The translations under genes were made by a program, and so were the position numbers. A model generated the notes under the pieces. The model saw nothing but the letters and a program-made list of their open reading frames with translations, was not told the DNA's origin and did not search any database. DNA of 63,208 nucleotides, filler included, from Folioceros fuciformis (Eukaryota): the NCBI GenBank assembly GCA_049999805.1. It is 33 parts of 33 records of this genome, joined end to end, with 100 filler letters (N's around TTAATTAATTAA, not from the genome) between each part and the next. Parts side by side here need not be neighbours in the genome. Positions count along the whole stretch, not along the records: positions 6,449 to 8,428 come from JBNGIO010004233.1; 32 more parts are not named here. The stretch is one strand, 5' to 3'. Shown here piece by piece: positions 2,071 through 60,236 of this stretch. Each line of letters opens with the position of its first letter. Position 1 is the stretch's first letter.

Positions 2071-2628
2071 TTTCTTGGGCACTACCACGATGGGAGCCAC
2101 CCAATCACTGGTGCAGACGGGGTAAATTACTCCCGCCTCCAGATACTGGTCTAGTTGCTCTTTCACCACCATTGAATACTTTGGATTCAACCGATATTGC
2201 TTCACCCTCACCGGAGTACTTCCTTCCTTCAGGTCGATACGATGGATTGCCAACTCTTCTGGTATTCCAGTCATGTCGGTTACTTTGAACGCGAATACAT
2301 CAATGTATTCCTGTAGGAGGGCCTTCAGTCCCTCTCGCTCCTCGGGCCGCAAATGTTTGGACACTTTGACACACTTACCAGGCTCAAGTTCCATTTCTTC
2401 CACCGCATCGGGATCGACATAGACCCCCTCGGGACTGCTGCCTACACTCGTCCCGGATCCCCATTCAAGAAAATCCCGATCAAAAGCTCGCCCCTTCCAA
2501 AAAGCGAGCCTTCCCTCCGACCTTCGTCTTCCTCCCCGGGGCTCTCCTTCCAGACGATGGGTGTTTCCGCGAGCGGAGGCGGGCCCTCCTTGGTTCTGTC
2601 CTCCACGATCGCATCCACCCGATAGCAC
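2071..2628 (-). pseudogene. pol: Gypsy reverse transcriptase N-terminal region, truncated at the contig end
   Basis: LLQEYIDVFAF...MTGIPEELAIHRIDL...PVRVKQYRLNPKY...LEAGVIYPV..SDWVAPIVVVPKK, the typical Gypsy RT start. Confidence 0.9.
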
Positions 2629-3694: not shown

Positions 3695-5654
3695 TTACCT
3701 GACCTTTCGCTTCTTCTTCTCCCCTTTTTCGCGACGCCTCTCCCGGTACTGCAGCTCCCACGCTCTTCTCCCAGAGCGCGTGGTGACTCTCACCACGTCC
3801 AATCCTTCCCCATCACTGACCTCGCCAACGTAGCCTTCTTCCACGATTCCCGAGTAGACATGGGTATCCTTCATCGTGTCAAACTCTGCCGCAACCTGCA
3901 TAGCAGGAGTCACGGTGATAGCTGTCTCGGTGTTCACGGGAGATCCGTCCGCCGCAGAGTTAGAAGCTTTGACCCCTGGTTGAGATGGGACAACACGTGG
4001 GATGCCTGAACAGCGTGGATCACCCGCTTTGTGGCCAAGTTCCTTGCACACTTGACAAAACGGAACGTACCCCATCTACCGCCTTAGCTCGAGACATTCA
4101 TGGGCATAATGACCAGGTGCACCACAATTATAGCAGCACCCGGCTGGAACTGACATCGGTCGTTGAGATGAGTCAGGCCTCCAATGGCCTGGCGTAATCG
4201 GGCGCGGCCCATACCGCATGGCTGGGGGTGCCATCGGTTGATAGGTGGCTCTCATCAATTGGGGTGGATGGGCCGCTGTGACTGCCTGCACTTGATAGGT
4301 CTCATCGACATACCAATAATCTCCAGGCGCATACGCGCCCACCTGGTTGACCACATGTCTTGGTGCCTTGGGGCACTCACGCTTGGTGTGTCCTGCTTGA
4401 TGACATATGGAACAGTACACCGACTGCCTAGCCGGAGAGGGAGATCGTCATGGAGCCTAATTTTTCACCGCCTTGACCTCCAACTCCGTCAACCGCCTGG
4501 TCAGGGCCTCCAAATGATCCGTGAGGNNNNNNNNNNNNNNNNNNNNNNNNNNNNNNNNNNNNNNNNNNNNNNNNNNNNNNNNNNNNNNNNNNNNNNNNNN
4601 NNNNNNNNNNNNNNNNNNNNNNNNNNCTCCATCCTATTAGAACTCTTGTTCTTCCTCTCCTTCTCGGCTGCTCTCTCAGAATCCTCCTAGCGCTTCCTTT
4701 TTGGGCGTTCGAGATCCTTCTTCAACCCACGTTCGTAAGCGCGGTCGGACTCGTCGTCCATCGAGTTGCCTGAGATGGTGCTTCCCTGCTCCGTGTCTGA
4801 CGTGGAAGAAGACGTAGAGGGACGCGATGGCGAAGAAGAACTGGAGTACCTCACGTCCTTGACCTTCCCCCGCTCCTTCCTCTTCTTCCGCTTCCCATAC
4901 TCAGCCAGCTCATAATCTTCGGCCGCCTTCAGACATTCTTGCAGAGTGGTGGTCCCCAGTCGGCAATGGGTGTCCATAGCATCAGGGAGTCCACTTGCAA
5001 ACCAATCCAACGCTTGCTCGTCAGAAAAACCAGGGGTGGATGGACCACTGAGAACGGCTGGCGTGCACCTTGGGACATGCTCCAAGTATCCGTAGAACCT
5101 TTCTACGTAATCGCGCAGGGACTCCTTCCTTCCCCTATGTAGGTTCTTCAAATGAGAGAGCGCATGGCTCTCGGAGTTCAAACCCATGAATCGCATGAGG
5201 AATGCTGCCTTCAAAGCATTCCAATCAGCAGGTGGCACACTTCCGTAGGTCCTGTTGTACCACTGCTGAGCACATCCTCTCAAAAGGCCTGGGAAAATCC
5301 TAAGCCTATCAGCCACCGCGTCCTCCAAATTTGCACACGACACATGCTCAAAGGTGCGAGCAAAAGCTTCTACATCATCGCTCCTCTTCTTGTCCCAAAT
5401 TTGGTGTACTGCTGACGACTGTGGAGGTGAACTGCCCCTCCCCTAGCCGTGGCTGCAGGCGTGCCTCCACTCATGCTGGAAATTCCGGCTAGATGCAAAA
5501 TCGGGGTTCCCCGCCCACGACCTGCCGTGGCGGGTTGTGCCACTATGGTTGATGCGACTGGAGTAGGTGGCATCCTTGCAAACGAAGACTCAGGCGCTGG
5601 AATAAAGAGGGCCTCTGCACGGTTCTCTCTCAGTTCTGCAATGAGTTCTTCCAA
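3695..5654 (-). pseudogene. gag: Gypsy gag (capsid-like core plus CCHC zinc knuckles), disrupted
   Basis: FPGLLRGCAQQWY...WNALKAAFLMRF...ESLRDYVERF core; knuckles CSICHQAGHTKREC, CYNCGAPGHYAHEC, CQVCKELGHKAGDPRC; 1-nt frameshift near 5396; in-frame TAG at 4076-4078. Confidence 0.88.
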
Positions 5655-6448: not shown

Positions 6449-6960
6449 TGCATCACCCTCGCAGGAATTGCGGGGCGTCTCCAGAGCATCATTCAGACTG
6501 TCTTTAGCTGAGGAGTATTGAGCCATCTCCTCGACTTCCTCCTCTTTGTTGTGTTGTGGAACAAATGGTGCCTCCTCTTCCGAAACCTCAGGTTGCATAC
6601 GAGGCATCTTCTGCTTGTCTTTCACGAATCCCACTGCACGAGTGCTAAGGACTCTGAATTCTACTTGCACCGATTTCCGCTGCCGCTCCCTTGCAAGCCG
6701 CGCTACAAGAGCCTTGTTCTTGAGCACTGCGTCTCCTACACATCACAAAAATGTTCGACAAAATTGTTCTCCACCCTAATTAATGAAAAACCAAACACAA
6801 AAGTTAGGGTTTACGATAATTCTCGATAATGGCATTTTAACCTTTTAAGCTGCTAAGACCACTTACATCCTTCAATAAAAGACAATCTCTTAGCGCGTTT
6901 TTCATCCACAGCGGTTCGCATCGGCGAGGTATGGCTTTCGCAATATTCACAACCTCTAAA
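6449..6960 (-). pseudogene. Two-exon fragment of an unknown protein gene (91-nt GT-AG intron 6866-6776); duplicate 7444-7955
   Basis: GTAAGT donor and T-rich ...TTAG acceptor join ...RDCLLLKD to GGEQFCRTFL*CVGDAVLKNKALV... in frame with ORF 6401-6727; one TGA at 6743-6745. Confidence 0.5.
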
Positions 6961-6983
6961 TTGTGACTGTCATAGTCATCCGT

Positions 6984-7433
6984 AATGTGGCAGATTGACA
7001 GATTGAGTTTCAGCTAGATGATAAAATTCGACCTTGTACAAAGGAAGTAGTTTGTAAACTTGAACCTGTGTGTAATAAACTTATAACGTTGAGTTCGTCT
7101 GAGTATGGATTGGTTGTGGTTGAACTGTTTGCTGGAATTGCATTTGGCTGTGTTGGCTGCTGGGTATGTGGTTAAACATTACATTTATTATGATCCAGAT
7201 GAAGTTTGTTAGGCGATTACAAAGGCAAGAGTGTTCAAATTATGTAAAAAGTATCATGAACAATTAAAGGTTGAAGCTATGAAGCAAGCGTTTTCTGTTT
7301 GGCTGCAGGATGTTAGGCTTATTGGATTGATACAATTTCGAGTGGAAGAAGAAATTGATGTAATAATCGCTGGTTGGGAATGTCACGGGCATTCAATGGC
7401 AGGCAAGGGAAAGGGCATGTTAGATTATAGATC
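6984..7433 (+). pseudogene. C5-cytosine DNA methyltransferase N-terminal catalytic region (motifs I-V), disrupted and truncated
   Basis: Motif I GLVVVELFAGIA (7107-7142); after a frameshift at about 7143: LAVLAAGYVVKHYIYYDPDEVC* (motif II), QDV (III), IDVIIAGWECHGHSMAGKGKG (IV, Cys codon 7381-7383), DYRS (V). Stops at 6996-6998 and 7210-7212. Confidence 0.85.
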
Positions 7434-7978
7434 NNNNNNNNNNTGCATCACCCTCGCAGGAATTGCGGGGCGTCTCCAGAGCATCATTCAGACTGTCTTT
7501 AGCTGAGGAGTATTGAGCCATCTCCTCGACTTCCTCCTCTTTGTTGTGTTGTGGAACAAATGGTGCCTCCTCTTCCGAAACCTCAGGTTGCATACGAGGC
7601 ATCTTCTGCTTGTCTTTCACGAATCCCACTGCACGAGTGCTAAGGACTCTGAATTCTACTTGCACCGATTTCCGCTGCCGCTCCCTTGCAAGCCGCGCTA
7701 CAAGAGCCTTGTTCTTGAGCACTGCGTCTCCTACACATCACAAAAATGTTCGACAAAATTGTTCTCCACCCTAATTAATGAAAAACCAAACACAAAAGTT
7801 AGGGTTTACGATAATTCTCGATAATGGCATTTTAACCTTTTAAGCTGCTAAGACCACTTACATCCTTCAATAAAAGACAATCTCTTAGCGCGTTTTTCAT
7901 CCACAGCGGTTCGCATCGGCGAGGTATGGCTTTCGCAATATTCACAACCTCTAAATTGTGACTGTCATAGTCATCCGT

Positions 7979-8428
7979 AATGTGGCAGATTGACAGATTG
8001 AGTTTCAGCTAGATGATAAAATTCGACCTTGTACAAAGGAAGTAGTTTGTAAACTTGAACCTGTGTGTAATAAACTTATAACGTTGAGTTCGTCTGAGTA
8101 TGGATTGGTTGTGGTTGAACTGTTTGCTGGAATTGCATTTGGCTGTGTTGGCTGCTGGGTATGTGGTTAAACATTACATTTATTATGATCCAGATGAAGT
8201 TTGTTAGGCGATTACAAAGGCAAGAGTGTTCAAATTATGTAAAAAGTATCATGAACAATTAAAGGTTGAAGCTATGAAGCAAGCGTTTTCTGTTTGGCTG
8301 CAGGATGTTAGGCTTATTGGATTGATACAATTTCGAGTGGAAGAAGAAATTGATGTAATAATCGCTGGTTGGGAATGTCACGGGCATTCAATGGCAGGCA
8401 AGGGAAAGGGCATGTTAGATTATAGATC
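7979..8428 (+). pseudogene. Exact duplicate of the C5 DNA methyltransferase fragment (assembly duplication)
   Basis: Identical to 6984-7433, offset 995. Confidence 0.8.
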
Positions 8429-9137: not shown

Positions 9138-9217
9138 GACTTACTTGCTTTTATGAAGCATCATCATATTGTGCAATAGCTAATTTTTTTTACTTGTGTT
9201 TAAACCTAAATAAAAGA

Positions 9218-9410
9218 TAAGTGCACATCTAGGAAACACCAACGGCGAACAACAACCTAAACAACAAATAAGTGCACATCTAGAAAACACCAATGGCAAA
9301 CAACAACCTAAACAACAAATAAGTGCACAACTAGAAAACACCAATGGCGAACAACAACCTAAACAACAGATAAGTGCACATCTAGAAAACACCAATGGTG
9401 AACAACAACC
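9218..9410. repeat. 51-bp tandem repeat, about 4 copies
   Basis: TAAGTGCACATCTAGAAAACACCAATGGCGAACAACAACCTAAACAACAAA with period 51; it produces the repetitive ORF 9180-9395. Confidence 0.9.
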
Positions 9411-10542
9411 TCGTTGTAGTATAGTGGTTCAAGTAAGGAGTTTGGACTCTATAGCCCCTAGGGTTCAACTACGACCGGGANNNNNNNNNNCCGCAACCCC
9501 TGCCTCTAGCCCGAGCTAGGGTACAGCCTCCATGACCGTTCAGGCCAGCCAGGCAATCAGCCAGCCAGACGTAAGATCATGACCCCTGACACTGACATAC
9601 CCCACATATTCCCGTTCCTATGTTCAGACCATTATTTTTTATTTTATATATTCTATTATTATTTAATCATTTAATATTATATATCTTTAATTAATATTAA
9701 ACTAATCACCAGACCTAGACTCAAACTTTCCCAACCCTATGGCCCGGTACCGGACCTAAACTTTCCCAGGTCTGGGATCAGACCTGTACCCACTTTAATA
9801 ACCAAACCAACTATTTCCTAGTCAATTAACCTAATTGGTAGAAAGCAAAATAGGAAAAATGACCAGAAAATGAAAAAAAGGAAAAAGAAGTAGAAAAAGA
9901 AAACCAAACCATACCACTATTAATCCTTTTTCAACCAAAACATACTACTATCCCAAACTTTGGAGGTTCACATGTGTACTTGTACACACCTAAAAAACAC
10001 CATCTACGAACACCAACCTCGTTGTAGTATACTGGTTCAAATATAGAATTTGGACCTTGCAACCTTGGGGTTCAACTACGACCCGGGTTCAAATACCGAG
10101 ACTTACTTGCTTTTATGAAGCATCATCATATTGTGCAATAGCTAATTTTTTTTACTTGTGTTTAAACCTAAATAAAAGATAAGTGCACATCTAGGAAACA
10201 CCAACGGCGAACAACAACCTAAACAACAAATAAGTGCACATCTAGAAAACACCAATGGCAAACAACAACCTAAACAACAAATAAGTGCACAACTAGAAAA
10301 CACCAATGGCGAACAACAACCTAAACAACAGATAAGTGCACATCTAGAAAACACCAATGGTGAACAACAACCTCGTTGTAGTATAGTGGTTCAAGTAAGG
10401 AGTTTGGACTCTATAGCCCCTAGGGTTCAACTACGACCGGGANNNNNNNNNNNNNNNNNNNNNNNNNNNNNNNNNNNNNNNNNNNNTTAATTAATTAANN
10501 NNNNNNNNNNNNNNNNNNNNNNNNNNNNNNNNNNNNNNNNNN

Positions 10543-17236: not shown

Positions 17237-17944
17237 CCTCCACCATGCTCCTCTAGTGATCCTACAAGTGGTATCAGAGCAGGTTGTGGAGCAGGTTGTG
17301 GAGCAAGACCATGAAGATGGCCATCTAGGAGGGGGAGGGGCGCCACGCAGGTGCCACCTCGATGCCATGCAGGCGCCACTTAGGCGCCATGTGAGAGCCA
17401 CTTGGGCGCCATGTGAGAGCCACTTGGGCGCCACATCAGCGCCATACGGGCACCACCTAGGCGCCATCACCACGCGGGCGCCACCCAAGCGACCCTTGGG
17501 CGCCATGCGGGCTCCACCTGGGCGCCATCAGAGCGCCATGCAGGCGCCACTTGGGCACCACTTAGGCGCCACGCAGGTGCCACCTATGCGCCACTTGGAC
17601 GCCACCTAGGCACCACCGGGCACCACGTGGGCGCCCGTGATGCGCGAAACGAGCGTGCCAGTGAAACGAGGACCTGATTGACGAGCGCCGGAAAGTGAAC
17701 AAATCGCAGACACCGGGAGCGAGAGTGTGGGCGCCGTATTGACCCCGGCTGAGGAAGTCAGGATCTGTAAGTTGTGAGGGTAACTTGTAGAATCTAAATT
17801 TCATTTCGACCAATTTCAAACTAGCCTTTTGGTTGATTTGGATCGATTTTGAAGCATGACGTCCTCAGAAAATGTCATGTTCAATATCGAGAAGTTAGAT
17901 GGTACTAACTTCCCGTTCTGGAAAGAACAAGTGTATAATGTTCT
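17237..17944 (+). mobile_element. Ty1/Copia element: LTR end, tRNA-Met PBS (17269-17280), repetitive leader, gag start at 17856; duplicate 17955-18662
   Basis: TGGTATCAGAGC; MTSSENVMFNIEKLDGTNFPFWKEQVYNVL is the typical Copia gag N-terminal KLDGxNxxxWK motif. Confidence 0.88.
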
Positions 17945-31326: not shown

Positions 31327-31869
31327 AAAAATATCCTGAGGCTCGTATCCTCGCATGATACTTTTAATGTCTTTCATTCTATCTTGGACCACCTGCGATG
31401 TATCAGCACTTGCAGCTTCTCCATGCTTCGCAAAACCTTTGATGCCATGTCGATGTTTAAACTTTGCTATCCAACCATGAGAAAATGTTAGTGGTTTTTC
31501 CAACCTTTCTGCTTCTGGTAACCTATTAAAGAACTGTTTTCCCATTTCACACAACATATCGTCAGAGATAGTGACATTTCCTTCCATCGTCACAAACCAT
31601 GAAAACAAAGCCTCCTCAACCTTTGGATGAAATGTATCCTTACTTCGTTTAGAGTTAGCTTCATGATCCTTGACGTTTTGAAACTCATTTCCCTTCTTGA
31701 AAATTCGACCTATAGTCATAGCAGAAACTGGCATGCTGAATTGATGAGAAGCCCAAGCACTAACCTCTCGATTAGTAGCTCCACTATGAGCATCTTTGTA
31801 TAATATTATTTCTTTCTTTTGCCCCATCGTCAAAGATAATTTCTTCTTACTACTTGGTTCTCGCGGCAT
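31327..31869 (-). CDS. pogo/Tigger-family transposase N-terminus (Psq-type HTH plus CENP-B-type HTH), 3'-truncated
   Basis: LSLTMGQKKEII...TIGRIFKK...HPKVEEALFSWF...ISDDMLCEMG...FSHGWIAKFKHRHGI...HGEAASAD...YEPQDIF, ending just before the expected first catalytic Asp; no stops. Confidence 0.92.
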
Positions 31870-32335
31870 ATTGAATTCACCCTAAGAAAAGCAAAAGTTG
31901 CAAACATACAATTTAATAATTGAGTACTCAAAATAATGAAATACAAAGTATCCCAAATCTAATATAGAAACATACCTCCAAATATGTGATTTTAGAAGCT
32001 TTTTTGTATAACGATGTCCTAGCCGCATTTCACGTTAACAAGCATAACGTACCTGGATGGAGAACACATGTTAGATCAAAAGCCTTCAACAATAAATACA
32101 AGAATTACCAAAACCTATTACAATTTGAATGTGGTAACATTTTCCTTCCCAAGCCACATGAAAGCGTAAAAAAAAAAGAAACTACCAAGATAGATAGTTA
32201 TAGGATTTCCGAGGCCTAAAACCATCATGAAATAAGAAAAAATAATGAAAAATAATGCATGAAATAATAAATATTAAACCAAGTTTAAAAAAATTATTAT
32301 TTTTTACTTCATACACTCCTATATACATAAATACA

Positions 32336-33060
32336 TACTTACTTCTCTCTTGGTCTCCTTCTCTTGTCTTCTCCTTCTTCTCCCTTCCCTTCTCCCTCGC
32401 TCTTCTTCTCTCTCTTGTGCCTTGTACCCTCTTGCTCCTTGGTCCCTCTTGCTCCTTGCTCTCTCTTNNNNNNNNNNNNNNNNNNNNNNNNNNNNNNNNN
32501 NNNNNNNNNNNNNNNNNNNNNNNNNNNNNNNNNNNNNNNNNNNNNNNNNNNNNNNNNNNNNNNNNNNTACTTACTTCTCTCTTGGTCCTCCTTCTCTTGC
32601 CTTCTCCTTCTTCTCCCTTGCCTTCTCCCTCCTTCTCCTTCTCTCTTGTGCCTTGTACCCTCTTGCTCCTTGCTCTCTCCTTCCACCTTCGCTTAGGCCT
32701 CCTTGCTTCCTCTTGCTCCTTGCTCCCCCTTGCTTCTTGTTCCCTCTTGCTCTCTCCTTCTACTTTTGCTTGGGTCTCCTTGCTTGCTCTCGCTCCTTGC
32801 TCCCTTGCTCCCCCTTGCTCCTTGTTCCTTCTTGCTCTCTCCTTCCACCTTTGCTTGGGCCTCCTTGCTTCCTCTTGCTCCTTACTCCCTTGCTTCCTCT
32901 TGCTCCTTACTCCCTTGCTTCCTCTTGCTCCTTACTCCCTTGCTTCCTCTTGCTCCTTACTCCCTTGCTCCCTCTTACTCCTTGCTCCCTTGCTCCCTCT
33001 TGCTCTCTCCTTCCACCTTTGCTTAGGCCTCCTTGCTCCCTCCTCCTTCTCTTGCTTTGG
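32336..33060. repeat. CT-rich low-complexity/minisatellite tract (includes 25-bp unit CTTGCTTCCTCTTGCTCCTTACTCC)
   Basis: Directly visible reiteration of CTCTTGCTCCTT motifs. Confidence 0.9.
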
Positions 33061-33360
33061 GCCCATCCAAGTCCTACATTGTGATTGACCTTCTCTTGCT
33101 TTGGGCCCATCCAAGTCTCGCATTGTGATTGGATGAATTAAATATTAATATTATTCATACTATTTTAAGCATAATATATATATATATTTAAAAAATAACA
33201 TTTATAGAATTGGACTATAGTGATTGGGAGTGCCTATTTTCCTAAAACAAGTAACATATAACATTTATAGAAAAATAACATTTAGCCTTACTCCCCAAAT
33301 AGGGAGTACCCAAACCTCTAACATTTATAGAGGTATAATATTTAGGGAGGTCACATTTAC

Positions 33361-33522
33361 AGAGGGCGGACTGTATAGAGGCTAAAATTGCAATGTTTGA
33401 GACTCTAATATGACAGAGGGCGGACTGTATAGAGGCTAAAATTGCAATGTTTGAGACTCTAATATGACAGAGGGCGGACTATATAGAGGCTAAAATTGCA
33501 ATGTTTGAGACTCTAATATGAC
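33361..33522. repeat. 54-bp tandem repeat x3 spanning the transposon end and flank
   Basis: AGAGGGCGGACT(G/A)TATAGAGGCTAAAATTGCAATGTTTGAGACTCTAATATGAC at 33361, 33415 and 33469. Confidence 0.92.
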
Positions 33523-34032
33523 GGAGACAAATAAGAAAATGGTAGAGAAGAAAATGATACTTTTGAGGATGTAGAGACTACAAAGCTGCATATAATGTAG
33601 TAGTAGTTTTGGNNNNNNNNNNNNNNNNNNNNNNNNNNNNNNNNNNNNNNNNNNNNTTAATTAATTAANNNNNNNNNNNNNNNNNNNNNNNNNNNNNNNN
33701 NNNNNNNNNNNNTGATAAATTTTGATTATGATGTCAATTTCATGCAAGTATGACAACCCGTACATGTTCGAGGGATGTTAAGCGAAAGAAGAAGATGTAG
33801 AAGATTGAGAAAACTTTATGAATTGGATCCAAATAGTCGTAATCGATGGTATGTTCGGGCTATATTTAAGCAACTAATTTTTGGAAGTAATTTGCGTGAT
33901 TTTAAAAATTTGGAAAACTCTTAGTACTTATAAATAAAAAGTATTTTAAGACTAAAAGAAATAAAGATTAATTATACATTAATAATGTTTTAGATAAAAG
34001 AACTCATAGAAAAAAAAAAGAGTCCTTCCATG

Positions 34033-37088: not shown

Positions 37089-37993
37089 TTATTCTAATAT
37101 TATAGAGTTCTTAGGTACTAAAGTATATTCTTCTAAGTCTTTTAGCTTATTATTAGTTTCTAGTCTTATAGAGCTTAGTTTATTTAACTATATAATTTAT
37201 TCTAAAAAAGTTTTATTATTAAATCTATTTTTAATCTTCTAGTCTAGATATTTTATATATAGCTAGTATATATATATCTACTAATTAAAATTCTAGTAGT
37301 TTCTATTAATTATAATATACTAATATATATCTTATTTAGATATTTATTTTAAAAAGAAATCTATATTTCTTTTATTCTATAGGTACTATCTATACTTATT
37401 ATTATAATAGTTATATTATTACTATTTATATCTTTCTCTAGATATTAGAAAGTAGCTACTATTCTACTTAGTCTAGTAGTAGGTTTTATATATATTATAG
37501 TAGTAAAACTAGTAATTTAAAGAATTATAAGTTAAGTTTTAGTAATTATTATTATAGTAAGAGTATTCTATATAGTAAATTAGTTTATATATTTATTATA
37601 AACTTAGAGTAAGATAGTATAGTAAGTTATTTATAAAGAAATAACAGCTAGTTAACTCTACGTATAAGTAACGCGAGAATAGTTATATAACTCTCTCGGA
37701 CTCTTATATACGAGAAAAAACTTAGTATTAGTCCTCTATATAGAATATACAAGAAATTCTCGAACTTCTCTAAGTAAGAAAAGTAAGAGATATAAGTATA
37801 TAAATCTTATAATTTAATATTAGTAGAATATTATAATTAACTTAGTTATTTAACTTAAGTACTATACTTAAGACTACTTAGTTATTTTAACTCTTATTTA
37901 TTAAATTTACTCTATCTATAAAACTTAACTTAAGTACTACTATACTTAATACCTATATTTATTATATATCTTAAGTACTTTATATATTCTTAG
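37089..37993. other. AT-rich contig with a repeat-induced point mutation (RIP) signature, probably ascomycete; duplicate 38004-38908
   Basis: By-eye count over 905 nt: no TG, 2 CA and 6 CG dinucleotides, with abundant TA, TAG and CTA. Confidence 0.8.
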
Positions 37994-40900
37994 NNNNNNN
38001 NNNTTATTCTAATATTATAGAGTTCTTAGGTACTAAAGTATATTCTTCTAAGTCTTTTAGCTTATTATTAGTTTCTAGTCTTATAGAGCTTAGTTTATTT
38101 AACTATATAATTTATTCTAAAAAAGTTTTATTATTAAATCTATTTTTAATCTTCTAGTCTAGATATTTTATATATAGCTAGTATATATATATCTACTAAT
38201 TAAAATTCTAGTAGTTTCTATTAATTATAATATACTAATATATATCTTATTTAGATATTTATTTTAAAAAGAAATCTATATTTCTTTTATTCTATAGGTA
38301 CTATCTATACTTATTATTATAATAGTTATATTATTACTATTTATATCTTTCTCTAGATATTAGAAAGTAGCTACTATTCTACTTAGTCTAGTAGTAGGTT
38401 TTATATATATTATAGTAGTAAAACTAGTAATTTAAAGAATTATAAGTTAAGTTTTAGTAATTATTATTATAGTAAGAGTATTCTATATAGTAAATTAGTT
38501 TATATATTTATTATAAACTTAGAGTAAGATAGTATAGTAAGTTATTTATAAAGAAATAACAGCTAGTTAACTCTACGTATAAGTAACGCGAGAATAGTTA
38601 TATAACTCTCTCGGACTCTTATATACGAGAAAAAACTTAGTATTAGTCCTCTATATAGAATATACAAGAAATTCTCGAACTTCTCTAAGTAAGAAAAGTA
38701 AGAGATATAAGTATATAAATCTTATAATTTAATATTAGTAGAATATTATAATTAACTTAGTTATTTAACTTAAGTACTATACTTAAGACTACTTAGTTAT
38801 TTTAACTCTTATTTATTAAATTTACTCTATCTATAAAACTTAACTTAAGTACTACTATACTTAATACCTATATTTATTATATATCTTAAGTACTTTATAT
38901 ATTCTTAGNNNNNNNNNNNNNNNNNNNNNNNNNNNNNNNNNNNNNNNNNNNNTTAATTAATTAANNNNNNNNNNNNNNNNNNNNNNNNNNNNNNNNNNNN
39001 NNNNNNNNACCTGAATGCTCAGCTGGGAGTACTTTTCCGCCGCTTCCACCACAACACTCCCATCCCGCCCTCCAGTGAGCACCTCCTCCTAAGCAGACTC
39101 AGGAGTCGTGGCCTCCCCGTCCATGATTTCAGTCCCAACCAGCATTCACAATGTGTGATGTAGCCAAGCGCTTGGCACTCCTGAGGTGAGGGAGGTCCTT
39201 GCACAACGTCGGAGACCTTCCGATCGAAACACCAGCGCTAGCGCGAAGTCAGGATTGGACTCCGTTTGCTAGGGCGCGCATTGAAGCAAAATACACAGGT
39301 CCCGTCCTCATCATGATGATCACCCTGCAACAGCGTTCAACACCTGGCACTCTTGATGCCAGACTCCACAACAAAATCACACATCCAAGTCCAAACACGC
39401 TTGCTGTGATCAAGTTCTGGCACGATCATAAGTCGTGGAAATGAGCTTAGCCGTGGCATTCTGCAGCCGTCCTAGCAAGAAATCGCTCTTCCCGACTTTC
39501 CGGCAGCAGCTGTCGGCAGGAACAGAAAAGGAGACAAGAGGAAGCCCGCTCGTGCTCGCGCAAAGCACTATTGCTGAGCTCAGTCGATTCCAGAGGTTTC
39601 ACAGGTGAAGCCCTACTTTCTTAGAGGCAAAAGAAACCATCTCCACCACAAACCAACACGAATTATGTTAGCAGAGAGGATTAGTTGGACAGGCCAGGAG
39701 TCTAAACTCACATCTGCCTGTCCCCCACTCGCCGATGCTTAGCAATGCTCAATTAGGGGTAGGCTCAGAGGGTAACCCCTTTTATTTCAACCTGTTATTT
39801 ATTTGTCCCAAGGGCAAAGTGTAGGCAAATGATGGGATGAGTGGTAGTCGATTGCGTGTTNNNNNNNNNNNNNNNNNNNNNNNNNNNNNNNNNNNNNNNN
39901 NNNNNNNNNNNNNNNNNNNNNNNNNNNNNNNNNNNNNNNNNNNNNNNNNNNNNNNNNNNNGAACGCAGACACTGGTGAGGAGACATTTGATTGCACGGCT
40001 AAAGCAATGCAAAACAAGGTGAGTGTCTGCACCTATACGTTTCTTACACAGCAGGATGCGAGTGTTCGAAGAAAACGTGTCTGGCAAGCACAGCCTGTTG
40101 CAGGAGGCGAAACCTTCAGCCTCCGATGTGGCAAGGCGGTTCAGGTTCAAGTCGTAGGCAGAGCCTGCCAGCAGGGTGTCAGTCAGCTCGCTCCCACTCG
40201 TTGAGTAGGATAAGGACGAGGAGGGTGGAAGAGGCGTGATCTTTTCCCAAGGCCCAGATCTTGACTGACGTCTTTGTATATAATATTATGCATTGTCCTG
40301 CTGCAAGGAAGGTGGTGCCAGCACTAGGTATCATAACCTTTTGTTTCCACCCAATCTTGTGTGTAGATTGATGGAACCTGCAATGCATTGTATATGATTG
40401 TGAGATTCCTGGTCCTTGTACACTTGTCGTATGCGAGAGGAGAAGGTAATTTCGAAGTCGTGGTGCAGTGTACGATGAAGGCCACCATGTCAAATAGCAC
40501 TTACTGATCACCACATTGTGGGCGAGGGATGAAGTTGCTGGGTTCTCAGGGCATGTGGTGCAGGCGCAGGAAAGCGTTTTGCAGACGTCATCATTTGGTA
40601 GCCATGTCATTCACACGCACTGTGCTAAGGTGAGTGCATGACTGTGAAGTCACCGACGATCTCAAGTTGGAACAGAGTTGTGCAAGCGTTAATAGCCTGA
40701 AGCTGGTGAGGTGATGGTAAGTTTAGGGTGATGGAGGAAGGTGGTGGGATAGTGTAGCTCTCCCTCTCCACACCCCGCTCACTTGTCGACCACGGGTGGA
40801 GAAAGTCAGTAAATTTTTTCTATCGTGGACGACTCCGATGTGCTGTCAGATGCACAGGCGCCGTACCGGCGAATGGGTCCAGGAAGTTGATGAAAAGATG

Positions 40901-41026: not shown

Positions 41027-41923
41027 GTGTCGCAGACCGTGAGCAATGCCGACATGGCCCAGGTCTCCGGCGTCGAGGTTCTGCGCTTCCACTACGCTGT
41101 TTCGATAACACAGGATGCGAGCCTGACATCGCTTGCGGGCTATGACTATGCGCTCGGCGACACCAGCAGCGCTTCGTTGACGGGACTGGCGAATGGCACC
41201 TCTATCGAAATGGTCGATAGTGTCAGAAGCGTTGCGCTTGCCTTGGCTTCCTCTTCCGGCAACGATGACAGCCTGACCCTTAAGATGTCAGCAGCAGGCG
41301 CTCTTGTCGGAACTCTGCAGGATATCGTCGGCCTTGAAACCCTCAACATTGTCACAGAGGCTGCTACGTCCTCTTCCTCCACTTTGTCCGCTTTGGCTTA
41401 CGACAATGTTACCGCCAGGCATGTTATCAGCGGCAGCGGAATGCTGTCCATCAGAACTACGCATGGCGGTAGTTTCGACGCTTCCGCCATGACCGGAGAT
41501 TTTAATCTATCCGGCGATTTTTCAGCTGCCGTTAACGTCAAGGGCAGCTCGGGCGTCGACACCATCACCCTCGGCGCCTATGCGGATACCGTAGATACAG
41601 GCAGCGGCAATGACTTCATTCTCCTGAGCGAGCGTGGCTACGCAAATAGGCCCTCCGGTGGCGATATCATTACCACCGGCGAGGGCAATGATCGGATCTA
41701 TTTTTTCAGCAGCGACGCGAACGGAACCGGAGCGGCGGCGGATTATTCCAACTTTGCCCGTATCACCGATTTCCATGTCGGAACCCCGGAAACCGGCCAG
41801 GATGTCCTCGTCTTAAGTTCTGGTACCGTTTATTCCCTGACCTCGGCGAATGGAACCGGCACGCGGCAGGATTATCTGTCCCAAGGAAACAACGACGTCA
41901 TATCCATTGGCAGTGGGATCGTC
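41027..41923 (+). CDS. Internal fragment of a bacterial S-layer/RTX-like calcium-binding secreted protein
   Basis: 299 open codons; S/T/A/G/D rich; FDASAMTG, KGSSGVDTITLG, DTVDTGSGNDFI, DIITTGEGNDRI repeats followed by ITDF...DVLVLS. Confidence 0.8.
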
Positions 41924-50153: not shown

Positions 50154-50903
50154 NNNNNNNNNNNNNNNNNNNNNNNNNNNNNNNNNNNNNNNNNNNNTTA
50201 ATTAATTAANNNNNNNNNNNNNNNNNNNNNNNNNNNNNNNNNNNNNNNNNNNNCTACGAGGCCCTGCCCAGTCGGGATTTCCCCGAGAGGCCAAGGACCC
50301 TGTGCTAAGCCCATGGAATTTTCCGGGTTTCGGATCCGACCACGCCCAGGGCGCAAGGATTGCCGACATCGGCGCGCAAGGATTGCTGAAGGATCGAGGA
50401 TCCTATCTGACGGCCATAAACCCATGCCGGAACTGGGATTTCTGCGATTCGGGGGGCTTCCCAAACGCTCCGAGGCAGGGCAGACCAGGGGGGACGGCGC
50501 CGGCCACGACACGGTCGGCACCGGCCGGGACCTTCCTCCGATGCGGGGACCCCGGAACGAGAAACGCCCCGGCGGATGAACACCGGGGCGCCGCGGGCTC
50601 GCGCCCGTAAAACCGCCGGTCGGGCCCGTGTTGTCGAGGCACACCCGGCCGGCTCCCCACCCACCGTCAGGAACGGAGAGGTGAATGAGACAGGCGTAAT
50701 CGATCGTCGAGTCGCGATCAACCCGGCGCCCGGCCGCCCGTCGTCAGGGCCGATAACGGGCCGCCGGTCGGCGACAGGCCGGACCCCGTCCGCGGGTGCG
50801 CGACGACCTCCACAGACAAGACGGAACCGATGCCTGGCGCGGCGTCCGTCGCGCCCGGTCCTCCAGCCATGCCCGGAGACGGGCGACACGGGACATTCCC
50901 ATC

Positions 50904-51282
50904 ATGACCGACGACATCAGCCGCGGCTCCCCCCGGGAGCCCGATCATCCCCCCATGCCCGAAACGGCCCCGGCCGCATCCCGGGCCGGGTGCCCGGCGG
51001 ACGGGTCCGTCCACGTATCCAGGTCGCGGAGCGCGAGGTACCACGTGATGGAGTTCCAGGCCGGCGGGCTGGCCTTCCGGGGCACGATTTACACCCCCGA
51101 TAGGGAACGGGCCGTGGAGATGGCCACCGTGGCCCACGCCGAGGCCAAGGCCCTCGCTGAGCGTCACACGCCCGACCGGTTCCGGCGGCTCTGCCGCCTC
51201 CTCGGTCGCGGCCGCTCGCCCGCCCGGGCCGAGAAGGCCGCCCTGTTGCGCCGGAACCGGGCGGCCTCGAAGCACCCCGACC
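50904..51282 (+). CDS. Hypothetical protein, 3'-truncated, on a high-GC bacterial-like contig (50254-51282; duplicate 51293-52321)
   Basis: MTDDISRG...YHVMEFQAGGLAFRGTIYTPDRERAVEMATVAHAEAKALAE has strong GC third-position bias; no recognisable family. Confidence 0.4.
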
Positions 51283-52622
51283 NNNNNNNNNNCTACGAGG
51301 CCCTGCCCAGTCGGGATTTCCCCGAGAGGCCAAGGACCCTGTGCTAAGCCCATGGAATTTTCCGGGTTTCGGATCCGACCACGCCCAGGGCGCAAGGATT
51401 GCCGACATCGGCGCGCAAGGATTGCTGAAGGATCGAGGATCCTATCTGACGGCCATAAACCCATGCCGGAACTGGGATTTCTGCGATTCGGGGGGCTTCC
51501 CAAACGCTCCGAGGCAGGGCAGACCAGGGGGGACGGCGCCGGCCACGACACGGTCGGCACCGGCCGGGACCTTCCTCCGATGCGGGGACCCCGGAACGAG
51601 AAACGCCCCGGCGGATGAACACCGGGGCGCCGCGGGCTCGCGCCCGTAAAACCGCCGGTCGGGCCCGTGTTGTCGAGGCACACCCGGCCGGCTCCCCACC
51701 CACCGTCAGGAACGGAGAGGTGAATGAGACAGGCGTAATCGATCGTCGAGTCGCGATCAACCCGGCGCCCGGCCGCCCGTCGTCAGGGCCGATAACGGGC
51801 CGCCGGTCGGCGACAGGCCGGACCCCGTCCGCGGGTGCGCGACGACCTCCACAGACAAGACGGAACCGATGCCTGGCGCGGCGTCCGTCGCGCCCGGTCC
51901 TCCAGCCATGCCCGGAGACGGGCGACACGGGACATTCCCATCATGACCGACGACATCAGCCGCGGCTCCCCCCGGGAGCCCGATCATCCCCCCATGCCCG
52001 AAACGGCCCCGGCCGCATCCCGGGCCGGGTGCCCGGCGGACGGGTCCGTCCACGTATCCAGGTCGCGGAGCGCGAGGTACCACGTGATGGAGTTCCAGGC
52101 CGGCGGGCTGGCCTTCCGGGGCACGATTTACACCCCCGATAGGGAACGGGCCGTGGAGATGGCCACCGTGGCCCACGCCGAGGCCAAGGCCCTCGCTGAG
52201 CGTCACACGCCCGACCGGTTCCGGCGGCTCTGCCGCCTCCTCGGTCGCGGCCGCTCGCCCGCCCGGGCCGAGAAGGCCGCCCTGTTGCGCCGGAACCGGG
52301 CGGCCTCGAAGCACCCCGACCNNNNNNNNNNNNNNNNNNNNNNNNNNNNNNNNNNNNNNNNNNNNTTAATTAATTAANNNNNNNNNNNNNNNNNNNNNNN
52401 NNNNNNNNNNNNNNNNNNNNNACACGTTTCTACACGAAATATATGTATGATAATACACCTTTTTATTATTCATATTATTAGTTATTTTGTGCTCTTGTCT
52501 TATAATTTAATAATTTTCATTTTTAAAAATTTATTCCGTTTTATTAATTATTAAATTAATTAATAAATTAAAAATGAAGACTCTACTCTACAGCTCTACT
52601 TAATCTAAGTTTGATTCAAAAT

Positions 52623-53346
52623 CTAAGTTTGATTCAAAGGAAAGAAGGCATGTAGCCGAAATAATTCACTCAGAACGCCCTTTAAAGGATTACGTGGTAC
52701 GATTGGATCGAATAAGCCCTTATGGAATAAATATTCAGCCACTTGTGAATCCTCGGGTACTGTCTTATTCAATGTTTGTTCAATTACTCTTTTACCCGCA
52801 AATGCAATGTAAGCGTTGGGTTCAGCAATAATGATATCTCCCAACATACCAAAACTAGCCGTCACCCCACCTGTGGTAGGGGATGTAAGGACTGCGACAT
52901 AAAATAACTTTTTATTTGATTGATAATCGTATAAAGCGGAAGATATTTTAGCCATTTGCATCAAGCTCAAACTTCCTTCTTGCATGCGTGCTCCTCCGGA
53001 AGCACACACTAGAATAAGAGGTAAAAGTTTATTGGTAGCATACTCAGCCAAACGTGTGATTTTTTCACCTACTACGGATCCCATACTACCCCCCATAAAC
53101 TGAAAATCCATAACCCCAATTGCTACGGGAATGCCATTTAATTGACCTGTGCCTGTTTGAACAGCCTCAGTTAATCCTGTATTTTTTTGATAAGAATCAA
53201 TACGATCCTTATAAGGTTCCTCCTCCGAATGAAATTGAATGGGATCCAGAGAGACCATGTCTTCATTCATAGGATCCCAAGTACCTGGATCAATCGAACT
53301 TTCGATTCTATCGAAACTACTCATTTTCAAATGACATCCACACTGT
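52623..53346 (-). CDS. accD: Plastid acetyl-CoA carboxylase carboxyltransferase beta subunit, 3' part
   Basis: [69 protein letters not shown]; intact to the stop. Confidence 0.97.
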
Positions 53347-53557
53347 NNNNNNNNNNACACGTTTCTACACGAAATATATGTATGATAATACACCTTTTTA
53401 TTATTCATATTATTAGTTATTTTGTGCTCTTGTCTTATAATTTAATAATTTTCATTTTTAAAAATTTATTCCGTTTTATTAATTATTAAATTAATTAATA
53501 AATTAAAAATGAAGACTCTACTCTACAGCTCTACTTAATCTAAGTTTGATTCAAAAT

Positions 53558-54281
53558 CTAAGTTTGATTCAAAGGAAAGAAGGCATGTAGCCGAAATAAT
53601 TCACTCAGAACGCCCTTTAAAGGATTACGTGGTACGATTGGATCGAATAAGCCCTTATGGAATAAATATTCAGCCACTTGTGAATCCTCGGGTACTGTCT
53701 TATTCAATGTTTGTTCAATTACTCTTTTACCCGCAAATGCAATGTAAGCGTTGGGTTCAGCAATAATGATATCTCCCAACATACCAAAACTAGCCGTCAC
53801 CCCACCTGTGGTAGGGGATGTAAGGACTGCGACATAAAATAACTTTTTATTTGATTGATAATCGTATAAAGCGGAAGATATTTTAGCCATTTGCATCAAG
53901 CTCAAACTTCCTTCTTGCATGCGTGCTCCTCCGGAAGCACACACTAGAATAAGAGGTAAAAGTTTATTGGTAGCATACTCAGCCAAACGTGTGATTTTTT
54001 CACCTACTACGGATCCCATACTACCCCCCATAAACTGAAAATCCATAACCCCAATTGCTACGGGAATGCCATTTAATTGACCTGTGCCTGTTTGAACAGC
54101 CTCAGTTAATCCTGTATTTTTTTGATAAGAATCAATACGATCCTTATAAGGTTCCTCCTCCGAATGAAATTGAATGGGATCCAGAGAGACCATGTCTTCA
54201 TTCATAGGATCCCAAGTACCTGGATCAATCGAACTTTCGATTCTATCGAAACTACTCATTTTCAAATGACATCCACACTGT
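53558..54281 (-). CDS. accD: Exact duplicate of the accD fragment
   Basis: Identical to 52623-53346. Confidence 0.93.
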
Positions 54282-57647: not shown

Positions 57648-58360
57648 GTCCCAGGACCAATCGCCAAGGTCCGGCGTGGGTGCCCCTATCTCGACTATGC
57701 CGGCGGCGTTCAGGGGTAGCATCGCCCCCTCGCGACGGACAAGGGAAGAGAGAACGAAGGCGGTCTCTGTGCCGTCGAAGTCGAGCCGGCTCCAGACGTC
57801 GCCTTTATCGAGGAGGGCGAGGTCATAGGACTTGACGAGCGCTCGGATCTCGAAGGCCGTGAAGCCATCGGAGACCGTCTCGACCAATGCCGTAGTTCCC
57901 GACAACGGAAGCGAGGCCGTAAAGTCGGCCAGGGAGGCATCGGCCCCGGGCGACCGGCGGTCCGGAGATACGCCGTCCCATGCCGGCGTCCGTCGCTCGA
58001 TCGGATCCCCGACGATCCCGAAAACGCCGTAGGCGGTACGCACGGCCCGGTCGTCCTCGGCGACGATGCCCCGCAGCCGGTGGCGGATCTCGGCATCGGC
58101 ACGCTGGCGGCGGCGCTCCTCGGGCGTCCGGTCGGCCTCGGCCGCAGGATCGCGCTGGCGGGTCAGAAGGCCATCGGCGATGGATACCGCGAAAGCGGGC
58201 GGGACTGCGTCTTTAAGGGGAGCGAGCGTCGCGTCGAAGGCCGCACGGAGCATCGCGACGGTCCGCTCCGGATCGCCGGCATGGCGCAGGGCGAAGCAGA
58301 TCCGCTGCTCCTTGGAGTCGACGATCGCCGGCTTCGCGCGCAGGGTCAGGGGCGCAGCCG
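57648..58360 (-). CDS. Internal fragment of a high-GC bacterial hypothetical protein; duplicate 58371-59083
   Basis: Open across the whole 713-nt contig with a protein-like composition; no family recognised. Confidence 0.65.
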
Positions 58361-59281: not shown

Positions 59282-60236
59282 TCACACCTTGTATTCCTTG
59301 CATCGGCTCCCATTGGTCCGGGTTGGAAAATCTATGCCGTTGATTGTTTTCAACTGTACCGAATTGTTGGGGAAGACCTCCTTAATAATGTAGGGTCCAG
59401 TCCATAATGCATCAAACTTGGCGGGGAACTCCAACCTCCGCGCATCTTGCACCATTACCCACATGCCGGGGAAAAGAGTGCGCGCCTTGTTGCGTTTGTC
59501 AAAGGTAACCTTGCGACGCCTCTGAATGACTTCCACATGTTGAGAGGCCATCTGACGTGCCTCATCGAGAGCCTCCAATCGCGCTAAGCGGTCTTTAAGT
59601 GATTGAGATGTATCCAACCGCTCATCGATAGCAATGCGTAACGACATGACCTCAAATTCAATGGGTAAGATTGCCTCCACTCCATACATGAGGGCAAAGG
59701 GTGTTGCCCGGGTGGTCACCTTGTATGTAGTTCGGTATGCCCACAATGCTGCAGTTAGCTTGATGTCCCAATCGCGCTTAGAGTCTACTACTGTCTTGCG
59801 AAGGATGCGCACTAACGTTTGGTTGACACGTTCTGTCATCCCATTTGTTTGAGGGTGATAAGGAGTGGTCTTCCGATGGTTGATCCTGAATAACTCTGTC
59901 ATCTCCTCTATGGTGTCATTCAAAAAGTGGGTGCCCCTATCGCTGATTAGTATTTTTGGGCATCCAAATCGAGCAATGATGTTTTCATACAGGAAGATAG
60001 CAGTCTGCTTAGCATCTGCCTGTTTCAAAGCCTTGGCTTCTGCCCACTTGGTCAAGTATTCTGTGGCAACTATGATATATTGGTTTTGCCTTGAAGAAGC
60101 AGGGTTGATCGGTCCAACATAGTCAATGCCCCATTTTTCTAAGGGTGCTATAGGCAAAGAAGGATTTAAGGGTAAATCCATGTGAAGGTCATTTCGAGCA
60201 TACCTCTGACATGCGTCACATTTCTTCACATGTGCC
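59282..60236 (-). CDS. pol: Ty3/Gypsy integrase (pol C-terminus), uninterrupted
   Basis: CDACQ Zn motif, WGIDYVGP / LISDRGTHF / NGMTERVN (D,D35E), WTGPYII (GPY/F); no chromodomain; stop at 59282. Confidence 0.95.

Follow-up and report, generated by a model that had tools for sequence, protein, structure and literature searches.

In the window, by which we mean the whole stretch of 63,208 bases analysed here, positions 6999–7433 of the plus strand encode a C5 DNA methyltransferase from motif I as far as motif IV, which amounts to its N-terminal third, and this fragment very probably represents a decayed, 5'-truncated DNMT3-type domain from the Pol polyprotein of a Ty3/gypsy element (the "Gypsy-DNMT3" kind), one of many diverged repeat copies that most likely belong to a plant nuclear genome. 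Retrotransposons with a cytosine methyltransferase of their own have been described in dinoflagellates and in one charophyte, and the fragment, which we regard as a new but decayed representative of the known Gypsy-DNMT3 kind, points to a large and little-described Gypsy family with a DNMT3-type domain, two Pol architectures and a labile position before the catalytic cysteine (Glu, Pro or Ser). The interpretation put forward in the initial annotation of this DNA is, with the corrections given below, essentially right.

In the explanation that we favour, a Ty3/gypsy lineage with a DNMT3-type methyltransferase inside its Pol polyprotein would have left this decayed copy, which is truncated on its 5' side and cut on its 3' side by the contig end, and the domain may serve to methylate the new DNA copy of the element or nearby DNA.

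The methyltransferase contig within the window

Far from being one locus, the window strings together 33 tiny scaffolds, which are separated by spacers of the form N44-TTAATTAATTAA-N44, with stops in all six frames. Twenty-eight of the 33 consist of one contig (636–1053 bases) repeated identically around N10, the remaining five of two differing contigs around N100, and the GC content of the contigs ranges from 0.19 to 0.71. The methyltransferase fragment lies on an unplaced contig of 985 bp (6449–7433; GC 0.42, CpG observed/expected 0.75), an identical second writing of which follows after N10, at 7444–8428. A tandem duplication was considered for this second copy and rejected, given that so many scaffolds share the same layout of contig, N10 and identical contig; it is an assembly artefact and, because contigs are written twice around N10, so is any apparent tandem duplication in the window. 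What had been described as a hidden gene sits on a short contig written twice and not in a long locus. An Rfam scan of the whole window gave no match.

Reading frames, motifs and damage

The coding sequence is read in two pieces. Frame 1 (6999–7142, plus strand), which reads ...SSEYGLVVVELFAGIA and ends in ...EYGLVVVELFAGIA, provides an N-terminal lead of about 36 residues followed by motif I (LVVVELFAGIA, 7110–7142). A frame break at approximately 7143 removes the second glycine region of this motif, and frame 2 (7144–7431, plus strand) then reads LAVLAAGYVVKHYIYYDPDEVC*AITKARV...IDVIIAGWECHGHSMAGKGKGMLDYR and ends in ...VIIAGWECHGHSMAGKGKGMLDYR. Frame 2 comprises the motif II region (YIYYDPD, 7180–7200), a long helix segment between motifs II and III (about 7213–7293), motif III (QDVR, 7306–7317) and the motif IV core G-W-E-C-H (7372–7386), in which the catalytic Cys codon occupies 7381–7383. 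The fragment stops at ...DYRS, where the contig ends (7433), just short of a helix that its relatives have after motif IV.

Motif I (ELFAGIA, 7122–7142) precedes motif IV (GWEC, 7372–7383), as in the canonical order of C5 methyltransferases. The order I-II-III-IV at the N-terminus of the domain is not that of the DRM permutation, in which motifs VI–X come before I–V, and the arrangement is not that of a CMT either, with about 85 residues between motifs I and IV and no match to the Chromo domain in Pfam. Motifs I to V had been proposed to occur in order; this is what we observed for I to IV, and motif V is absent from the contig. The insert between motifs II and III, estimated earlier at about 40 residues, amounts to about 17 residues beyond DNMT3A, as judged from alignment gaps.

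The frameshift is supported by two relatives, P0031 and P0048, which give collinear tblastn matches in both frames, and by the gain of about 10 bits in phmmer when the frame-1 piece is added with an X at the break (P0001, from 73.1 to 83.3 bits; P0002, from 69.1 to 79.6 bits). We read the frameshift near 7143 as real, and the earlier proposal of a C5-cytosine methyltransferase interrupted at this place is borne out by these comparisons. Of the two stops claimed previously, a single one was seen in frame (TAG, 7210–7212), in addition to the frameshift. With a frameshift, a stop, a change from Gln to His in motif IV and at most the first third of the domain present, the window copy is dead and without function.

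Relatives of the fragment

We searched 1.84 billion proteins exhaustively by phmmer with the 96-residue read-through of frame 2, written with X at the stop, and obtained 91 proteins at E ≤ 1e-3, six of which reach E ≤ 1e-10, with alignments that span the whole query; the closest match has an E-value of 1.7e-15 and 43% identity. An alignment of the fragment by hhalign to a family profile built from 12 relatives gave a probability of 99.7% and an E-value of 1.3e-25, over profile positions 23–120 of 330. The Pfam check that had been proposed for the repaired peptide came out in part: the fragment alone matches PF00145 weakly (E 0.0046, profile positions 44–86 of 324), and its 16.9 bits are below the gathering cut-off of 22 bits for a piece that covers less than one third of the domain. 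Most of the relatives pass this cut-off (e.g. P0069 with 46.1 bits and P0032 with 54.3 bits).

The nearest relative is 43–45% identical to the fragment, and a search of 15 billion proteins, many angiosperm proteomes included, gave no relative above 45% identity. In the family tree the fragment is placed on a long end branch (1.08), with no starred clade containing it; it pairs with P0125 at an SH-aLRT of 89, a pairing that is not starred. When longer proteins related to the 96-residue read-through were sought by word matching, 19 candidates came up, none of them significant. In metagenomes, an exact DNA pattern over motif IV matched 0 stretches, and a protein scan gave 137 pattern matches, 0 of which were confirmed by tblastn. 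The ESM Atlas, queried with P0001, returned generic DNA_methylase clusters of bacterial or viral origin (score 0.91), which we treat as a lead only.

Ty3/gypsy Pol polyproteins carrying the domain

The resemblance to transposon-borne methyltransferases, noticed already in the initial annotation, is supported by the domain content of the relatives. Among 22 relatives scanned with Pfam, 16 bear retroelement domains (RVT_1, RT_RNaseH, Integrase_H2C2, rve, aspartyl protease or zf-CCHC), one of these, P0033, weakly (E 0.006); the six proteins for which Pfam found none are P0001, P0002, P0008, P0018, P0032 and P0048, and P0008 still resembles the gag and protease regions of P0069 in BLASTP. A profile search for long proteins identified 45 at E ≤ 1e-10, and in 43 of these precomputed retroelement Pfam domains are present, counting RT, RNase H, integrase or protease.

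Two domain orders were observed. In P0069, P0060 and P0008 the order is gag-protease-DNMT-RT-RNaseH-integrase, and P0010 presents DNMT-RT; in P0034, P0066, P0083, P0084 and P0064 it is RT-RNaseH-DNMT-integrase, often with a PHD finger after. A PHD finger ends many of the DNMT-bearing gypsy polyproteins (P0034, P0066, P0083, P0084 and others), following the integrase, where it occupies the place that the chromodomain has in chromoviruses and brings together a chromatin reader and a DNA methyltransferase in one Pol.

The named sources of the relatives are Closterium sp. NIES-65 and NIES-53, Haematococcus lacustris, Hariotina reticulata and Tetradesmus deserticola, all of them green algae and none a land plant, and the remaining relatives are metagenome or read-assembly proteins. 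Across the 12 divergent full domains of the profile that we call A1, the catalytic cysteine (C97), the glutamate of ENV (E139) and the two arginines of the Arg-x-Arg motif (R179 and R181) are invariant; motif VI (ENV) and motif VIII (RxR) of the relatives correspond to sequence beyond the contig end at 7433.

A glutamate before the catalytic cysteine

The motif IV of the window has Glu-Cys and not Pro-Cys, and this WEC motif, with Glu for the usual Pro, had been singled out in the initial annotation. With the window counted in, the alignment has 109 distinct rows; the catalytic cysteine is preceded by Glu in 55 of them, by Pro in 37, by Ser in 11 and by Ala in 1, and in the other five the motif is missing. 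By regular expression the motif was found in 131 of 163 family proteins (WECQ 66, WPCQ 50, WSCE 9, WSCQ 3 and three others), counts that include near-identical cluster members and miss P0001, which reads SGWECQ. Polyproteins of at least 1000 residues have WECQ in 23 cases, WPCQ in 29 and WSCE in 8, and the family tree demands at least 11 changes of state at this position.

That WEC arose from PC by decay was considered and dismissed, since Glu is the commonest residue in the aligned rows and is also present in the polyproteins of the relatives. Glutamate at this position is a trait of the family and not damage. The relatives have GW(E/P/S)CQ; the His that the window presents instead of Gln after the cysteine is private to this copy or to a minority, as most other copies in the sequencing reads differ at this codon (place 7386).

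Assignment to the DNMT3 class

Profile A1 was searched against all solved structures, and the best matches are DNMT3A (E 2e-23) and DNMT3B/DNMT3C (E about 3e-20), followed by NtDRM/DRM2 (E 2e-12 to 8e-11), M.HhaI (E 4e-9) and DNMT2 (E about 1e-6), with 0 DNMT1 or CMT chains among the 58 structure matches at E ≤ 1. A model of the P0069 domain was obtained by AlphaFold (pLDDT 91.9, pTM 0.91), and its top matches in Foldseek are all DNMT3B, DNMT3A and DNMT3C, with E-values of about 3e-19, TM-scores of 0.72–0.84 and about 20% identity. As to the METHYLTRANSFERASE question, these comparisons argue for a family with a non-permuted DNMT3-type domain, an assignment to the DNMT3 clade made on the family profile and on the model of a relative as queries, and not on the fragment alone.

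The animal enzymes DNMT3A/3B/3C are among the closest known systems, being the best match both in sequence (E 2e-23) and in structure (TM 0.72–0.84) and sharing the motif order, the motif IV cysteine, ENV, the motif VIII "AHRxRxxWxN" and the C-terminus "ERxxGFP...LLG". They differ from the family in that identity is about 20%, in having GSPCN where the family has GW(E/P/S)CQ, and in the absence from them of the approximately 17 extra residues and the longer II–III helix; the family, in turn, is without PWWP or ADD domain and is embedded in a retroelement Pol. Plant DRM2 and NtDRM, the second-best solved matches (2e-12 to 8e-11), are plant de novo methyltransferases derived from DNMT3, but they are circularly permuted: motifs I–IV of the family align to residues 229–352 of the 357-residue DRM chain, and since N-terminal motifs of the family align to the C-terminal part of that chain, DRM is permuted relative to the family.

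Known retrotransposons with a cytosine methyltransferase

In its accessible part, de Mendoza et al. (2018; PMC5890265) describes three such elements, SymbioDIRS-Dnmt3, SymbioLINE-Dnmt and KnitGypsy-Dnmt3, the last being a Dnmt3-type domain in the Gypsy Pol of the charophyte Klebsormidium nitens. According to the same portion of that paper, the DIRS-borne Dnmt3 of Symbiodinium performs CG de novo methylation in yeast, and the single Klebsormidium domain tested gave no methylation in yeast, a result that its authors consider inconclusive. Members of DNMT3 inside retrotransposons of streptophytes and dinoflagellates are also mentioned in the accessible text of PMC12344493, and a 2026 preprint, as far as its available text goes, lists the above three elements as the known TE-borne DNMTs and adds the DNMT4-like "EpiLTRs" (10.64898/2026.05.21.726589).

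By its published description, to which the likeness refers, KnitGypsy-Dnmt3 resembles the relatives of the fragment in having an intronless, non-permuted Dnmt3-type domain in a Gypsy Pol ORF. It differs in that the window copy is without a visible Pol and has a flowering plant as its apparent host, and in that the relatives occur in two domain orders, many of them with a C-terminal PHD finger, features not mentioned in the accessible text on it. SymbioDIRS-Dnmt3 and SymbioLINE-Dnmt, as described in the accessible text, are also retrotransposon-borne C5 methyltransferases, those of DIRS being Dnmt3-type, but they belong to DIRS elements with a tyrosine recombinase or to a LINE, whereas the relatives have a DDE integrase and a Gypsy RT/RNase H. 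The EpiLTRs of Cymbomonas and Euglena are, in the available text of the preprint, Ty3/gypsy-like algal elements with a cytosine methyltransferase; theirs is a DNMT sister to DNMT4, accompanied by a Dam-like adenine methylase and a chromodomain, whereas the relatives appear DNMT3-type and no Dam or chromodomain match was seen in them with Pfam. In the openly accessible main texts that were searched, we found neither this family in chlorophytes or angiosperms nor the Glu-Cys motif.

Copies in sequencing reads and structure of the contig

Three DNA runs of one coded sample carry 43%, 16% and 6% of the sampled words of the contig, and contigs from these runs were aligned to 6449–7433 at no less than 85% identity. 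The pieces that fit number 250, 200 and 246 per run, most of them 90–95% alike (range 85–99%), with a depth of about 3–22 for a single piece. As all 30 bins of the contig are covered by these hundreds of pieces, the whole of 6449–7433 belongs to a multi-copy, diverged repeat. The differences between copies are rich in transitions.

Of the other copies in the first two runs, most have a different base where the stop codon begins (7210). Loose ends at 7146/7147 (2–3 pieces per run) reveal that some copies have a longer stretch at the frame break, with one frame kept, and loose ends, likewise from 2–3 pieces per run, belong to copies that continue in the same frame past 7433. These observations, with the stop replaced and the frame kept in some other copies, argue for intact copies elsewhere.

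Further loose ends were located at 6991 and at 6996–6999; they show that, in other copies, the parts on either side of about 6995 have different neighbours, and some of these neighbours extend the open frame upstream. The upstream part (6449–6991) is without similarity to the Pol of the relatives, and we take it as a hint, with one to three contigs per loose end, that the contig is the junction of an unrelated repeat (6449–6991) and a 5'-truncated methyltransferase element. Such a junction of two repeats would explain why the upstream sequence does not resemble a protease or RNase H: tblastn of the 163 family proteins against 6449–7020, at E ≤ 50, gave noise (best E 0.01) and neither of these domains. 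The upstream repeat contains a minus-strand open frame of 98 codons (6449–6742) that has a high content of Glu and Lys and runs off the left end of the contig; Pfam had no match for it or for two other upstream frames. The initial annotation had noted that no linkage to a pol gene is visible, and indeed the 985-bp contig shows neither an RT, an integrase or a protease nor an LTR, an absence that follows largely from contig size.

One of the runs, X3, presents full-depth G-to-A changes in the left half of the contig and C-to-T changes in the right half, which are absent from X1 and X2. The pattern looks like that of bisulfite-converted reads and, if this is what it is, the run could give the methylation of the copies.

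Origin of the contig and alternative explanations

We consider it probable, to a lesser degree than the domain assignment itself, that the methyltransferase contig comes from the plant nuclear genome. Another contig of the window, with angiosperm chloroplast accD (52422–53346), speaks for a plant, and so does, as a lead only, the gag ORF at 4690–5442, whose nearest clusters are from Streptophyta. In the explanation that competes best with this one, which we regard as possible but less credible, the contig would derive from another eukaryote in the sample, such as a green alga or a bryophyte living on the plant, and would carry the same kind of element. The named relatives are all green algae, the 15 billion proteins searched, with their many angiosperm proteomes, hold no relative above 45% identity, and a low-abundance contaminant would be expected to assemble only its high-copy repeats, as tiny contigs. 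The bin, moreover, does not seem to be clean, because three contigs in it look bacterial (41027–41923, 50254–51282 and 57648–58360, with their copies): their GC content is 0.56–0.71, their CpG observed/expected ratio 1.1–1.3, their open frames are long, and one of them has a weak match to RTX calcium-binding repeats (E 2e-4, below the cut-off), so that they are probably bacterial contamination of an assembly that was not cleaned.

Several observations are difficult to reconcile with such a second eukaryote. Hundreds of pieces, at a depth of about 3–22 each, call for a genome whose sequencing depth is close to that of the main one, and the methyltransferase contig has the depletion of CpG and the excess of TpG/CpA that characterize most contigs of the window. 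The share of contig words in the best run (43%) hints at another data set, in which case the family would recur independently, and the absence of matches among plant proteins is accounted for by the fact that transposons are masked prior to annotation.

An origin in the plant has consequences for the distribution of DNMT3, and here we are tentative. One possible, though doubtful, reading is that a Ty3/gypsy lineage present in many copies in the nuclear genome of a flowering plant codes, or did so until recently, for a Glu-Cys DNMT3-type methyltransferase; the plant would have retained it from the time of the streptophyte algae or acquired it from green algae by horizontal transposon transfer. 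If true, the lineage would span Chlorophyceae, Zygnematophyceae and angiosperms, a range wider than the single charophyte case in print. Angiosperms are reported, in the accessible text of PMC6453930, to be without DNMT3; copies that truly belonged to a flowering plant would be the first DNMT3-type sequences in angiosperms and would bear on the loss of DNMT3 in this group.

A pseudogene of a host DNMT3 or DRM gene, outside any transposon, is very unlikely. Such an origin would agree with the best solved matches, which are DNMT3A/B and then DRM, and with a contig that has no Pol, but it is hard to combine with the hundreds of diverged copies in the reads, with well-aligning relatives that are all embedded in Pol or fragments, with a motif order I-II-III-IV in place of the DRM permutation, and with the GW(E/P)CQ signature and long II–III helix that the fragment has in common with the Pol-embedded family.

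Chance resemblance, or a fragment of a bacterial or phage restriction-modification methylase, as the Pfam score below the cut-off and the bacterial and viral DNA_methylase clusters of the ESM Atlas (a lead only) might suggest, has a negligible probability and is refuted by the phmmer match (E 1.7e-15 in 1.84 billion proteins), by the structure search, in which the family profile favours DNMT3A over M.HhaI by 14 orders of magnitude, and by hhalign (99.7%).

Other elements of the window

The methyltransferase fragment is accompanied in the window by pieces of other mobile elements, all without linkage to its own contig. The minus strand at 59285–60235 encodes the core of a gypsy-type integrase (rve, E 1.8e-10) that shares 25–35% identity with the integrases found in DNMT-bearing polyproteins; a retrotransposon gag is present at 4690–5442 (minus strand), an ORF whose nearest ESM Atlas clusters are from Streptophyta (a lead only), and the helix-turn-helix of a Tc5/pogo transposase at 31327–31881 (minus strand). 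The sequence 2071–2367 (minus strand) weakly matches (E 2.4e-5) residues 890–984 of the Closterium polyprotein P0092.

A fragment of chloroplast accD (TIGR00515, E 1.5e-94) is encoded on the minus strand of the contig 52422–53346, with its copy at 53357–54281. It is 94% identical to that of Pilea cavernicola and 98% identical to a metagenome protein, with a long list of angiosperms next, and its sequence suggests, for this unplaced contig, plastid DNA or else an insertion of such DNA in the nuclear genome.

The contig 37089–37993 (copy at 38004–38908) has a GC content of 0.19 and observed/expected ratios of 0.0 and 0.06 for TG/CA; Tandem Repeats Finder detected no array in it at score 100. Short tandem arrays occur on other contigs, at 9203–9411 (copy at 10165–10373), with a period of 51 bases and open in one frame, at 17339–17635 (period of 22/33 bases), at 32669–33037 (period of 85/25 bases) and at 33359–33526 (period of 54 bases).
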